Shown: positions 2,713-42,202, numbered from the stretch's first letter. The stretch is 44,339 nt of DNA from a virus (IMGVR_UViG_2923286960_000001); one strand, 5' to 3'. Numbers and translations are program-made. Notes: generated by a model from the letters alone, not told the origin.

Positions 2713-3537
2713 TCAGGCGGTGAAAGTACCAATAAAGGTTTCTACTTTGCTGTCTTTGAATTTCTCAACAAGCAGATCACGAAATTCGTTAGCCATTTCT
2801 TCCTGCACCGCTTCCAGCTGAATAATGCGCAGAACCAGTACAGGACGATCGCCAGTGATAATGCTGAGGCGTAATTTAAACGGACGTTCTTTCAGACCTT
2901 CAAACGGAACGCATTTAAATTCAAATGCCACTGGCATAATGTCTTTGGTCTTCGCTTCGACAGACTCCATCAGGGAGCGTTTGCCGCTGAAGTCATTATC
3001 TTCAAAATCAGCGGTCTGGTTTGCTTCAATCGTGATTTTACGGACTGCCGCAGCCGCTTTTGTTGCTTGAATGGCGTCACCATTAGCATCAAAGCCCACA
3101 AGGTAGTCGGCCCAGTCTTCGATCCATTCTGCCAGTGACCTCTGGGAGTTACGCTCGCCGTTAACAGACAACAGAGCAGAGAACGGTGCTGTCTTTTTCA
3201 GTTTGAGAGTGGCAGTGTTATCTGCGTGACCTGGCTCATCAATAGTACCCAGGTTAAGCACACTGACGGCACGCATATTATCGGCATCGATAAAGCAGCG
3301 GGTGCCTTCATCTGCAAGATCTTTAGAATAACGGGTAAAATCATCGATGCTGGCAGTGGAAAGTGCACCACGGAAACGGAAGCGATTTAAATTAAATTTT
3401 TCCAGATCATGAATGCGGAAATTCTCAGGCAATGCCACAGCATCGGCACCAATCTTACTGATAATTTCATTAACACCCTGAGCAGAAATAAGGGCATGGA
3501 TTTGATTAATTGCGGTTGCGTCTAAGTTCTGAGACAT
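2713..3537 (-). CDS. yfdQ: uncharacterised prophage protein (274 aa, YfdQ/DUF2303-like)
   Basis: ORF with GAGGAC SD-like sequence; length and sequence recalled as YfdQ-like. Confidence 0.65.
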
Positions 3538-3602
3538 AATAAGTCCTCACTATATAAAGATATTCAGTGATGAGATAAATAATCAGTTTATTACGAACGA
3601 TA

Positions 3603-3965
3603 TTAACGACCTGCTGCGCGGAGTTTTCCGTCAGGTTCACCGGCAAGAGTCAGTAATTGTCCCTGGTCTTCCTGCAGAATAGTCAGGCGACCACCGCGAT
3701 TGACATACATCGGCGTTTCGGTGGTGTCTTCTTCGGAAATTTTCCCGCGGTTAGTTGGGCGAACATATGAGAGTTTGTGTTTGATTTTCACACGGTTCTC
3801 ATCAAACGGTTCGATTTCCAGATTGAGTGAGACCTTCCCTTTGGTTTTCGTGTTCATCACACCGGAAGCGACCTCACTGAGAACTGCGCCGATTTTGGTT
3901 TCAAATACGCCGCCGTCCAGCTCCCCGATAAATGCCTGCACATCAGTACTGCGTTCGCTAGCCAT
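3603..3965 (-). CDS. hypothetical early prophage protein (120 aa, YfdP-like)
   Basis: Start at MASERSTDVQ with AGGAG 8 nt upstream; the longer ORF to 4151 lacks an SD and is Arg/Cys-rich. Confidence 0.6.
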   Translation of the reverse strand: MASERSTDVQAFIGELDGGVFETKIGAVLSEVASGVMNTKTKGKVSLNLEIEPFDENRVKIKHKLSYVRPTNRGKISEEDTTETPMYVNRGGRLTILQEDQGQLLTLAGEPDGKLRAAGR

Positions 3966-4426
3966 TTTGCTGCTCCTCATCATATCGACCCTGCAAGGTC
4001 GGTTGGTTTCTCCACAAAACAGAGAAGAACACCTGCGGTGGCAGCCGCCCGGATGGATTGGGTTATGAGCCCGTCGTCCGGTGATGCTCTTCTCTGTTTT
4101 GTAAAAAGAGCGGTGCCAGCCGGAAGCAAGTGTACAAACTGGTACCGCCAAAGCAGTGGCTGTTGTGGTGCCGGGTGCCTCCCGGTGCCTGGCGAAGGTT
4201 GCACACCAGGCGGGTGGGTATCCACAGAAGGTCGACTGTCAGCCTCAACCTTAACCCGCGTGCGCTGAGCCGCATTCACCACAACGCTAAGGATTCTCTC
4301 TGGTTGAAAATACTTAGCTGTTATGTGCCTGCTTTTAGCCACATCAGGCGAGGTGGACCTGGTTATTCCCCAACAACAAGGATTCGGTTAATCTTGATAC
4401 CCCCAATAACATGGTGATTATTTAAG

Positions 4427-4930
4427 ATGGACAAATTTGATAGAAGTGCACAAAGGCAGTTGTTACAAATACTGTATGATGCTCATCCTTATGAAATTTC
4501 TGATGATGCGTTGCAGTCTGTTCGTGACGCATTTGGAGATGATAATGTCCTAATTTCGAACTTAATTTATCTCGAAGAACATGGCTTGATTAAGAATGCT
4601 CTTGATTATTACTTGGATGGCATAAATATAAATATTCCTGAATTAAGAATTACTAAAGATGGAATTGATTTCATTCGTGATGATGGAGGTCTTAAAGCTA
4701 TTCTTGGGATTATGACAATAAGATTGCATGATGAGACTCTCTGTGAACTTGAACGTATCATCAATAGTTCTACTTCTGCCACGACTGAAGATAAGAAGAA
4801 ATTACTCTCTCAGCTTCGAACGCTTCCTGCCGACGCCATAAAACAGCTGACGATTCGATTACTTGGTCAGGGGCTTGACCATCTGCCGGACGTATTTCAC
4901 GTAATTCAAAAAGCCCTCCATTCTCTGTAA
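4427..4930 (+). CDS. hypothetical protein (167 aa), AT-rich moron of unknown function
   Basis: 504-nt ORF in low-GC DNA where stop codons should be frequent; globular-looking sequence; followed by an intrinsic terminator at 5108-5134. Confidence 0.5.
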   Translation: MDKFDRSAQRQLLQILYDAHPYEISDDALQSVRDAFGDDNVLISNLIYLEEHGLIKNALDYYLDGININIPELRITKDGIDFIRDDGGLKAILGIMTIRLHDETLCELERIINSSTSATTEDKKKLLSQLRTLPADAIKQLTIRLLGQGLDHLPDVFHVIQKALHSL

Positions 4931-5107
4931 ATTCTGATTCTGGTCGGATTAGACAGAATCGTCCCCATCCGACCTGCTTACTAAGTAGAATCCAGAATTC
5001 GTCTTGTTGGTTGGTGCTGATAAAAAATCCATTAGGATGAACGTAAGCACAGAATATGACCATAGAACCCTCTTTTGTTACGGGGATACTAAGATTGTTA
5101 AAGAGCT

Positions 5108-5134
5108 AAGCGTCCTGTAGGGCGCTTTTTTGTT
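5108..5134 (+). terminator. rho-independent terminator downstream of the 167-aa ORF
   Basis: Hairpin AAGCGTCC-tgta-GGGCGCTT followed by TTTTTTGTTG. Confidence 0.55.
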
Positions 5135-5219
5135 GCTAACGAATCATCCGGTCATTCATACGCCACCGGCGGCTACTTCGTGGGCGTCCTGCCTGTCCGT
5201 GATAGCTTACATTATGTTG

Positions 5220-5232
5220 CTACTTAAAGTAG
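5220..5232. promoter_or_regulatory. candidate OL operator (perfect 13-bp palindrome CTACTTAAAGTAG)
   Basis: Same half-site (CTAYTT/AAGTAG) as the two repeats between cI and cro; a second inverted repeat lies at 5240-5268 (CAACAACAAA-n9-TTTGTTGTTG). Confidence 0.45.
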
Positions 5233-5410
5233 CAAAAATCAACAACAAAAAGTAGATATTTGTTGTTGTCTATGATTTTTCTATAATTAATTGAAAGTTA
5301 AATGTTTTTGCTGATTTACTATGCTGTAAACTGAAAATATCGCACGAAGTTGGAGTAGGTATTGAGCATAGTGAATTATGAGGAGGGAGTTTTTTATGAG
5401 ATTAATCAGG

Positions 5411-5453: not shown

Positions 5454-6530
5454 TTACTTTGTAAGTTCTAGAACTCGTTGAGCCAGCCCTTTAAATTGTT
5501 CGTTAAAGGCGTCTCTGCTTGATTTCATTGTATTTAAGGCATGCCCAAATTGCCCTGAATCGCGAATTTGCTGATCACTGATGGAGAAAACAGGTGTCGC
5601 TAGTTGTTGGCTTATTGCGATTAATGAGTTGAAATCGGAAATATGCGCAAGATCATAGGCTGATAAATCTCCACTGACTGTTGTTTTGTTAATTGCATGT
5701 TGCACTTTATCTCGTGGAATTATGCAGGTAATTTTTTCTAGATTTGGCACTAAGATCGAATCAACAGCATCACGGATAGCTGCCATCCATTTTTCGAAAG
5801 ATTTTACAGGTGCTCCTTTACGCGGCCTGTATCTCTGCTGAATCATACCTAGAAACTGCGGTGCATTTTTAATTGATTGTGAAGAGTTACCATCATTATT
5901 TTCTTTAAATAATGCTAATTCTTTGTGCCAGCGAGGTATATTTTTTGAGAGAGAGCGAATTGCTTGCCAGCAAAAAAAGTCTGGAGCTACAGGTACGATA
6001 AAATAGTCACTTGACATGAGAACTACTTCATTTAAACCTCCAACATTAGGGCTGAGATCATAAAGAATGTAATCAATATTATTCTTCATGGCGATTAGCT
6101 GTAATATTTTTGGCAGGTTCCCTGGTATATTTCTTGTAGCAGGAATACCAGCAGCAATTTTTAGAGAAACACTTATCTGTGAATCTAAGTCCGAAACATC
6201 TAAATGTCCGGGAAGAAGCAGAAGGTTTTCATGCAGTGTAGGGTGTAATTTTCCCGTTTCTTTTTCAAGGTATGCTTCAGGTTGTCCGCCATTAATCAAA
6301 TATTCTACAATAGGTCCAAGAGTTAAGTTATCTCTGCTAGAATAAAAAGAATCTAAACCCTCATCAATCTTTTCATAGCCAAGAACCATTCCTGTTAGAT
6401 TACATTGCGAATCAAGGTCAACCATCAATACTTTCTTGCCTTCATCCGCAAGTGCCCATCCAAGATTGAAGGTTGTTGTGGTTTTACTTACCCCACCTTT
6501 ATGATTAAAAAAACAAATTGATTTTGTCAT
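5454..6530 (-). CDS. ParA/MinD-family P-loop ATPase with about 100-aa C-terminal extension (orphan, no ParB)
   Basis: Deviant Walker A KGGVSKTT at residues 11-18, A' motif MVDLDSQ, Walker B-like DYILYDLSPN; AAGGA SD; low GC; lies downstream of cI on the same strand. Confidence 0.85.
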   Translation of the reverse strand: MTKSICFFNHKGGVSKTTTTFNLGWALADEGKKVLMVDLDSQCNLTGMVLGYEKIDEGLDSFYSSRDNLTLGPIVEYLINGGQPEAYLEKETGKLHPTLHENLLLLPGHLDVSDLDSQISVSLKIAAGIPATRNIPGNLPKILQLIAMKNNIDYILYDLSPNVGGLNEVVLMSSDYFIVPVAPDFFCWQAIRSLSKNIPRWHKELALFKENNDGNSSQSIKNAPQFLGMIQQRYRPRKGAPVKSFEKWMAAIRDAVDSILVPNLEKITCIIPRDKVQHAINKTTVSGDLSAYDLAHISDFNSLIAISQQLATPVFSISDQQIRDSGQFGHALNTMKSSRDAFNEQFKGLAQRVLELTK

Positions 6531-7443: not shown

Positions 7444-7479
7444 CTATTTTAAGTAGTTGCATTCTGCTATTTTAAGTAG
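7444..7479. promoter_or_regulatory. OR-like operator repeats between cI and cro
   Basis: Two copies of CTATTTTAAGTAG (7444-7456, 7467-7479); a further palindrome CCTCTGAATTTCAGAGG at 7487-7503 just upstream of the cro SD. Confidence 0.5.
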
Positions 7480-17179: not shown

Positions 17180-17357
17180 TCGCGGGTTTTCGCTATTTAT
17201 GAAAAATTTCCGGTTTAAGGCGTATCCGTTCTTCTTCGTCATAACTTAATGTTTTTATTTAAAATACCCTCTGAAAAGAAAGGAAACGACAGGTGCTGAA
17301 AGCGAGCTTTTTGGCCTCTGTCGTTTCCTTTCTCTGTTTTTGTCCGTGGAATGAACA

Positions 17358-41924: not shown

Positions 41925-42202
41925 AAGATTTAACACTCAAATTTGCAGACAGGGCCGACTTTTCGGCCTTTATGGAGAGCATTGGCTATTATGATGACGA
42001 GTCGATGCAGGATGATATTCTTATTGACGTGATAGGTAATGTGTACAAAGAAACCGGAGAACTTACTGAAGATGGCGAGCCGGTATGTGTTAAGGAGGAC
42101 GGATATTTTGTAAATGTGCGCATCATTAATGATTCGCAAATATCGTCATTATTCGATGAACACGCGGTTGCTGTTGAGCATCAACTCCGTAGCTGGATGT
42201 GA
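41921..42202 (+). CDS. hypothetical acidic protein (93 aa) coupled to stf
   Basis: ATG overlaps the stf stop (ATGA); AT-rich. Confidence 0.5.
   Translation: MKDLTLKFADRADFSAFMESIGYYDDESMQDDILIDVIGNVYKETGELTEDGEPVCVKEDGYFVNVRIINDSQISSLFDEHAVAVEHQLRSWM

Follow-up and report, generated by a model that had tools for sequence, protein, structure and literature searches.

The 460-bp GC-rich block at positions 3966-4426 of the prophage DNA analyzed here (44,339 nt; hereafter the window) is probably an untranslated, highly structured leader, read from the minus strand, that belongs to the early-left (PL) operon in a lambdoid, N-less prophage of the SfV/ST64B/mEp460 type. In this reading, which we favor, its core (4286 to 4104) would be an operon-embedded variant of the small RNA sRNA-17, a terminator with a U5 tract would attenuate the operon, and the long hairpin that follows would be an RNase III-type site. 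The reading is built on RNA structures that covary across Enterobacterales, on a consistent assignment to one strand, and on homology to sRNA-17, a sister RNA whose existence and ends are documented in the literature.

An unannotated leader in the early-left operon

The window belongs to the lambdoid prophages of SfV/SfIV/ST64B/mEp460 type, and an identical prophage lies beside a tRNA-Arg gene in E. coli WP8-S17-ESBL-12. In that copy, PGAP annotates yfdR, yfdQ and yfdP on the minus strand, followed by 460 bp without annotation; beyond the gap, a rightward gene of 167 aa is followed by a ParA-like gene, then by a cI-type repressor and by cro. An earlier note, made from this DNA alone, had placed the block next to the last early-left gene, and it does sit in the leader of that operon. 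The note's description of the block as GC-rich is also borne out, with a GC content of 0.55-0.60 over 3901-4300 and 0.33-0.51 in the flanks. Some form of the block is present in 2860 of 5426 complete E. coli genomes. The CPS-53 prophage of K-12 was considered as a relative and set aside, as the region upstream of its yfdP is non-homologous. The features that we assign to the block and its borders are as follows.

3965-3963, minus strand: start codon (ATG) of yfdP, placed likewise by PGAP in the identical prophage.
3978-3973, minus strand: Shine-Dalgarno sequence GAGGAG of yfdP, which together with the start codon marks the 3' limit of the leader.
3984-4003, minus strand: small G+C hairpin ACCGACCUUGCAGGGUCGAU, a few nucleotides upstream of the yfdP ribosome-binding site.
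4014-4102, minus strand: inverted-repeat hairpin of 89 nt with 20 contiguous pairs and a branched top.
4109-4149, minus strand: terminator-like, DicF-like hairpin, followed by a C and then by U5 (4107-4103).
4150-4161, minus strand: single-stranded linker of 12 nt, AGCCACUGCUUU, the presumptive seed.
4162-4285, minus strand: pseudoknotted multi-helix domain of 124 nt, defined by the STnc100 score, covariation and a permutation test of the pseudoknot.
4277-4285 with 4162-4170, minus strand: helix P1 of 9 bp, GUUGUGGUG / CACCACAAC, which encloses the domain; an AAU joiner is next to it.
4258-4273, minus strand: helix P2, followed by the variable center.
4187-4211, minus strand: helix P4, whose loop pairs in the pseudoknot.
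4171-4185, minus strand: hairpin P5.
4246-4252 with 4195-4201, minus strand: pseudoknot AAGGUUG / CAACCUU, between the stretch just 3' of P2 and the P4 loop.
4104-4286, minus strand: predicted small RNA of 183 nt (domain, linker and terminator), placed by alignment with the mEp460 sRNA-17.
4316-4352, minus strand: motif M, CCUGAUGUGGCUAAAAGCAGGCACAUAACA (CCTGATGTGGCTAAAAGCAGGCACATAACA), upstream of the domain and common to phiES15, sal3 and IMG/VR relatives.
4394-4421, plus strand: promoter-like TTGATA-16-GATTAT for the rightward 167-aa moron (ATG at 4427).

The promoter-like sequence at 4394-4421 belongs to the neighboring moron and not to the RNA. It ends 6 nt before the ATG, which suggests that the moron mRNA is leaderless. 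The moron itself (4394-4930, plus strand) falls in phrog_3983, a family of unknown function. In SfIV, sal3, phiES15 (where it is an unannotated ORF) and one IMG/VR relative, the rightward gene that begins 70-100 bp from motif M is another one. Between the moron and cI, the ParA-like gene (5454-6530, minus strand) has a weak N-terminal match to a candidate defense family.

The structured RNA is encoded on the minus strand

The earlier note named no strand. Folding favors the minus strand (z = -4.66) over the plus strand (z = -2.97), and the G.U pairs in the inverted-repeat stem, P1 and P2 exist on the minus strand only; the U.G pair in P2 is present in 93 of the 95 relatives described below. 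Furthermore, a hairpin followed by a U-run stands at the same position in the window, SfIV, ST64B and phiES15, each time with an unrelated stem. Based on the G.U pairs, these position-conserved terminators and the published RACE data for sRNA-17 (PMC7719688), we conclude that the functional strand is the minus strand.

The inverted repeat illustrates the point. As had been noted from the sequence, ACAAAACAGAGAAGA (4014-4028) is exactly complementary to TCTTCTCTGTTTTGT (4088-4102) over 15 bp, with 59 nt between the arms. The arms reach 25 nt each at 84% complementarity, and since two arm mismatches turn into G.U pairs, the minus-strand RNA forms 20 contiguous pairs. On the plus strand, A and C would face each other at these two positions of the stem (16 and 19). 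In natural variants the G.U pairs are replaced by A-U or G-C, and ST64B carries a compensatory change from G-C to A-U. The 44-kb window has just three inverted repeats that reach this grade (exact seed of 12 nt, arms at most 200 nt apart), and by our own arithmetic a perfect 15-bp repeat within 100 nt is expected by chance about 0.004 times per window. Elsewhere in the prophage we observed a second inverted repeat with 25-nt arms and a 7-nt loop (17277-17333) and a 20-nt palindrome (42114-42141).

A conserved domain with a covarying pseudoknot

Searching Rfam, a check named in the earlier note, produced a mixed outcome. At the gathering thresholds there was no match anywhere in the window; a permissive scan placed STnc100 (RF02076) at 4164-4283 of the minus strand, but its 35.6 bits (E = 1.2e-5) fall short of the 47 bits set for gathering. 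The alignment covers model positions 31-147 only. The window has the closing helix P1 and the P2 and P5 hairpins, together with the GGUGAAU and CACCGGGAGGCACCCGGCACC cores. Sub-gathering STnc100 scores were also obtained for SfIV (38.4 bits), phiES15 (40.6), ST64B (35.1) and the dicF-dicB spacer of K-12 (34.4), and the phiES15 match runs over the full length of the model, terminator hairpin included. Among other RNA families, the right operon of ST64B (L003 6719-6920) contains isrK and C4 antisense RNA matches above the gathering score, and an IMG/VR relative carries a sok antitoxin RNA (L021 11157-11331). A search for tRNAs or tmRNAs found none. The arrangement of the domain is cloverleaf-like, with stacking of P1 and P5, the AAU joiner and a short P2, and we therefore considered a tRNA mimic; this was rejected, as the loops are unlike D and T loops and there is no CCA end.

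To collect relatives, we scanned IMG/VR for the 5' core of the domain, which recovered at least 120 loci of several sequence types, and we scanned one genome per species for the pattern TGGTGAAT-N70-100-CACCNGGAGGCACCNGGCAC, which recovered 106 loci across Kosakonia, Enterobacter, Klebsiella, Citrobacter, Pantoea, Erwinia, Buttiauxella and other genera. That TGGTGAAT and CACCNGGAGGCACCNGGCAC do not vary among these relatives is a consequence of the search pattern itself. The pattern loci and the earlier loci together comprised 144 distinct sequences, which were reduced to 95 representatives at <93% identity.

Across the alignment of these 95 Enterobacterales representatives, P1, P2 and P5 are paired in 91.3%, and their covariation (0.234) exceeds that of shuffled alignments (0.082; 0/500) and is well above that of slid controls. 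For P2, changes on both sides of the helix occur in 22-27 sequences. RNAalifold, applied to the MAFFT alignment, did not detect P3, P4 or the pseudoknot, because the variable center is misaligned. We thus tested the pseudoknot by comparing, for each sequence, its own pairing partner with permuted ones: the best helix averages 6.33 with its own partner versus 4.91 ± 0.11 with permuted partners (0/5000). The helix is realized by many distinct sequences, for example CAGUUAA / UUAACUG in Qin, AAGGCUG / CAGCCUU in phiES15 and ACUGGU / ACCAGU in many STnc100-type copies. Overall, covariation across homologues, which the earlier note had named as a way to check the block, is found for P1, P2, P5 and the pseudoknot. 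The GC-rich palindromes that it had pointed out at 4160-4230 likewise proved to be real hairpins, namely P5 (4171-4185) and P4 (4187-4211).

The window encodes a predicted, chimeric variant of sRNA-17

The small RNA sRNA-17 of E. coli K1 RS218 is encoded in an mEp460-like prophage, was defined as a 193-nt transcript by 5'/3' RACE and Northern blot, is more abundant in stationary phase, and was reported to have no Rfam homologue (PMC7719688). Taking mEp460 as the reference for placing it by the published primers, we found that the primers map to 1897 to 1705 (L236 coordinates), at the position and on the strand predicted for the window. On mEp460, sRNA-17 begins with (C)GUUGUGGUGAAUGCG and ends with ...GGUACCGCUCUUUU, and it therefore corresponds to the unit of domain, linker and terminator. 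Its 3' RACE end falls at the homologous ...CCGCUCUUUU, matching the U5 terminator of the window.

The two copies share their locus directly upstream of the inverted-repeat hairpin and yfdP, their strand and their overall fold. Their 5' 16 nt (CGUUGUGGUGAAUGCG) are identical, and a single base differs in their 3' 75 nt, which comprise part of P5, the 3' strand of P1, the linker AGCCACUGCUUU and the terminator. The linker equals that of sRNA-17 exactly and differs from the linker of SfIV and ST64B; as the presumptive seed, it would define any targets that the RNA may have in trans. In contrast, the interior of about 100 nt is unrelated, so that identity does not extend over the full 193 nt, and sRNA-17 proper has no STnc100 match whereas the window has one, although the two folds share their architecture. 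SfIV carries the interior of the window together with another linker. Since the window combines the ends of sRNA-17 with the interior of SfIV, we conclude that it is a recombinant of two alleles, and it would rank among the "degenerative sRNA-17s" of the original study (PMC7719688). The element is a chimeric variant of known prophage sRNAs and not a new kind.

When sRNA-17 was replaced by a cassette, yfdP reads rose from 0.49 to 47 (about 95-fold) and yfdR reads from 0 to 8.5 (PMC7719688). This rise in yfdP cannot be separated from polar or cassette effects. In the same study, sRNA-17 is regarded as a gene under ArcA control that has a promoter of its own, and terminator, operon context and fold are left undiscussed (PMC7719688). 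The arrangement described here suggests that effects ascribed to sRNA-17 in trans, such as the rise in yfdP, may in part be effects of an attenuator in cis.

Elements flanking the small RNA

The terminator-like hairpin at 4109-4149 has a large loop and five U only, and a simple terminator scan did not call it. The earlier statement that the inverted repeat is not followed by a U-run is right for that hairpin; however, U5 (4103-4107, minus strand) stands immediately 5' of it. The accompanying reading, "not a simple terminator", overlooked the terminator-like hairpin directly upstream of the inverted repeat, to which the U5 belongs.

RNase III needs about two helical turns of duplex (PMC11745405), and the inverted repeat fits in length, with 20 contiguous pairs, two G.U pairs included, and arms of 25 nt, set against the near-continuous duplex of roughly 20-22 bp expected of such a site. 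By analogy, we infer that this hairpin is probably an RNase III-type processing site. Further downstream, the position of the small G+C hairpin is occupied by unrelated hairpins in relatives (CCGCCCCUACGGGGGC, and CUGGCGGUGGCAACCCGCCA in ST64B).

Upstream of the domain, motif M is near-identical in heteroimmune phages of E. coli, Salmonella and Cronobacter, with a looser copy upstream of dicF in the Qin prophage of K-12. It matches neither the sigma-70 nor the sigma-54 consensus, nor the operator of the phage. A sigma-54 promoter within it was considered and rejected, as the GG-N10-GC spacing of the window is lost in relatives by one extra base.

In mEp460, a gene-free interval of about 290 nt separates the operators and PL from sRNA-17 downstream. 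In the window, CTACTTAAAGTAG (5220-5232) resembles an operator, differs at a single position from the two OR copies (at 7444 and 7467) and is the only such copy outside OR; the 70 nt just to its left are common to ST64B, where they adjoin clear OL operators. Judging by this one operator-like site and the analogy to ST64B, 5131-5232 probably holds PL/OL and the proximal leader, with PL near 5210-5260. Any transcript starting there would run antisense through the moron and would need to get past its terminator. In the same area, AGCUCUUUAACAA (5095-5127, minus strand) matches the rrn boxA UGCUCUUUAACAA at 12 of 13 positions. A hairpin immediately precedes it on its 5' side, which gives the boxB-boxA order seen in rrn leaders, and the putative left promoter lies some 100 nt upstream; it is the sole match in the window with at most two mismatches, about one being expected by chance.

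Proposed working of the leader

In the scheme that we propose, the left promoter/operator would fire leftward transcripts, leakily in lysogens and fully after induction. By analogy to dicBF, a large share of these transcripts would stop at the U5 terminator, which would thereby limit yfdP-yfdQ-yfdR and the genes beyond. Termination would yield a stable RNA of about 183 nt with its 5' end set at the foot of P1, although this end could also reflect a weak promoter rather than a processing site. Transcripts reading through would bear the inverted-repeat hairpin of 20-25 bp right after the terminator, and RNase III would probably cut it. Such a cut would separate the sRNA precursor from the yfdP mRNA and set the 5' end of the latter.

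Alternative readings

The conserved domain may be more than a scaffold for a base-pairing sRNA: we see a small chance that it is a sensor, or an RNA bound by the polymerase or another protein, that controls the adjacent terminator or gene. If so, the domain could supply the N-independent control that has been missing for early-left transcription in lambdoid phages of the ST64B/LLS/mEp460 type. An aptamer-like sensor proper, that is, a riboswitch or protein-binding leader acting on the adjacent terminator or gene, appears improbable. The multi-helix junction, the covarying pseudoknot and the near-invariant joining and loop nucleotides are riboswitch-like, and what comes next is either an intrinsic terminator or, 30-60 nt on, a start codon (of dicB, kil, a yfdP-like gene or a gene for a KdgM-like porin). 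Yet inspection of P1/P5 versus the terminator revealed no conserved alternative pairing between domain and terminator, the downstream genes are heterogeneous, and the invariance is partly forced by the search pattern. Moreover, members with their own promoter and terminator resemble ordinary sRNA genes, and STnc100 and PasD are described as sRNAs.

It is likewise improbable that the block is a structured, Rho-resistant spacer and a recombination joint of mosaic modules, with no further function as RNA. Long untranslated leaders need protection from Rho, which the structure might provide in such a reading, and homology with relatives does break at about 4178, 4356 and 4411 and inside the conserved cores. 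However, P1, P2 and the pseudoknot change in a compensatory manner from genus to genus, and this, the position-conserved terminators and the stable RNA detected for the sister copy sRNA-17 all indicate a selected RNA structure.

The earlier note had offered two functional proposals for the block, a small RNA or an N/nutL-type antitermination element. The first is supported, in the form of an sRNA-17 variant with an STnc100-like fold, whereas no likeness to N/nutL emerged: no N homologue is annotated in the identical prophage, and the lambda boxA CGCTCTTA is absent from the whole window. As these phages are without N, it is attractive to view the domain as a cis-acting processive antiterminator like HK022 put, serving the long early-left operon. 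N has been stated to be absent from this phage group, and a put-like mechanism was guessed by the authors (PMC12315714). Also in line with such a role, mEp460-like Stx2a phages have only about 780 bp of non-coding DNA between cI and yfdP, and the block is conserved, structured and located upstream of the operon genes. Nevertheless, we consider it very unlikely. We reconstructed putL and putR from the HK022 genome and the cryo-EM paper and aligned them locally to the block and to PL-proximal leaders; the similarity was not significant (z ≤ 2.8 relative to shuffles). STnc100-type copies are self-contained, with a terminator 30-80 nt after the domain in 50 of 75. The 3' end of sRNA-17 lies at the terminator just past the domain, and hence a polymerase fresh from the domain does terminate. 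Finally, in Qin the domain is downstream of the DicF terminator.

A role of the inverted repeat at the DNA level, whether as operator, as cruciform or recombination site, or within an origin, is highly improbable: its perfect 15-bp arm pair is unusual, but the arms extend only with G.U pairing, variants keep the RNA pairing, and the repeat is unlike the phage operators (CTATTTTAAGTAG), is common to heteroimmune phages and has a 59-nt spacer that is itself folded. The chance that the block is a decayed or unrecognized coding sequence is close to negligible: there are ORFs of 70-120 aa in several frames, ORFs were called here in SfIV, sal3 and mEp460, and one PHROG match was obtained (phrog_33599, itself the family of ORFs that others called over the same conserved DNA), but the ORFs have no Pfam match, the ORF frame varies between relatives, PGAP annotates nothing, and comparison with the ST64B homologue (67% identical) revealed indels of 1, 2 and 10 nt, not multiples of three, and 18/29/24 substitutions by codon position, with no third-position bias. 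The non-coding status claimed in the earlier note is therefore upheld, and the ST64B comparison came out against the decayed coding sequence that the note itself had raised as an objection.

Implications for annotation

Databases leave the block unannotated or fill it with spurious ORFs. Our analysis instead annotates it with an operon-embedded RNA of the sRNA-17 type, a terminator and a putative processing hairpin. The covarying pseudoknot is a feature that the Rfam model does not describe.

Comparison with known systems

Like putL and putR of HK022, the element is an RNA in the early leader of an N-less lambdoid phage that would act in cis. The put elements differ in that they comprise about 70 nt and two stem-loops right after the promoter, whereas the window has the domain and then a terminator that is probably used.

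In the lambda N leader, as in the window, the first early-left gene has a large hairpin shortly before its ribosome-binding site, and in lambda RNase III processing of this leader modulates N translation. Compared with lambda nutL, the window is without the N gene, the boxA CGCTCTTA and a boxB-type hairpin of 15 nt.

STnc100 and PasD, which are described as sRNAs with target sets, the latter found by Hfq RIL-seq, have in common with the window the P1-P2-...-P5 domain, the GGUGAAU and UCACCGGGAGGCACCCGGCACC cores, the linker, the intrinsic terminator and the location in prophages. The window differs in its sub-gathering score, in its P2 of the GCGGCU type and in being without a promoter of its own. 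Furthermore, STnc100 and PasD lie in the late region near Q, stx and lysis genes, whereas the window copy lies in the early-left operon leader. STnc100-type copies have a TTGAC-17-TAnnnT promoter whose end is 5-10 nt upstream of GUGGUGAAU; after the domain come a linker and, in the 50 of 75 copies mentioned above, a Rho-independent terminator. Unlike these copies, the window has no promoter-like site on the minus strand between 4287 and 4430, while the terminator is present. Some STnc100-type copies form tandem arrays of three with a promoter and a terminator each, and one viral contig has the domain flanked by tRNA genes (L154 6359-7010, L217 5459-6555, L128 4344-4485). Twelve chromosomal copies, in Kosakonia, Enterobacter, Klebsiella and Raoultella, precede KdgM-like porin genes.

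The GCGGCU subfamily, which includes the window copy, has no promoter of its own and is found inside early-left operons, where dicB, kil, a homologue of yfdP or some other small gene usually follows after 30-60 nt. A terminator separates domain and gene in the window, ST64B and phiES15. One sequence type from the IMG/VR scan is located after the DicF terminator and before the start codon of dicB, and this is also the arrangement in the Qin prophage of K-12, where DicF scores 76.7 bits (L129 3384-3435) and the next 210 nt score 34.4 bits on STnc100. This dicF-dicB spacer (L129 3446-3591) folds into the same domain with an 18-bp P1 and carries no RNA feature in RefSeq. RNase III is reported to generate the 3' end of the 72-nt DicF (PMC5069750), and by our coordinates this end falls inside the 18-bp P1 of the Qin domain. 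A long duplex directly after a DicF-type terminator is thus a known RNase III site. Two further RNase III papers (PMC6212723, PMC5371410) cite DicF alone, and ManS (PMC11745405), considered as possible kin, is STnc500 and unrelated.

The window and Qin dicBF share a DicF-type terminator hairpin, a GCGGCU-type domain, a long duplex beside the terminator and an early operon repressed by a cI-like protein. DicF is made from the operon transcript by termination and through processing with RNase E and with RNase III, accumulates in stationary phase, and no internal promoter was found for it. The order of the modules is swapped, as in Qin the domain follows the terminator and abuts dicB, and the seeds differ. 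The likeness of the terminator hairpin to DicF is limited to the 5' arm, where only UUUGGCGGUA(U/C)CAGUUU is common; the DicF model (RF00039, at least 48 bits needed) has no match in 3500-5300 even at E ≤ 10, whereas related linker-plus-terminator units in L021 and L057 score 41.1 and 38.1 bits.

Hence sRNA-17, STnc100/PasD, the dicF-dicB spacer of K-12 and DicF-type terminators, which are separate in the literature, appear as shuffled modules of one Enterobacterales prophage RNA system. Relative to the papers considered here, what appears to be new is the fold with its pseudoknot, the connection of sRNA-17 with STnc100/PasD and with the dicB leader, the recognition of the DicF-type terminator as a module, and the reading of the element as an early-left attenuator.
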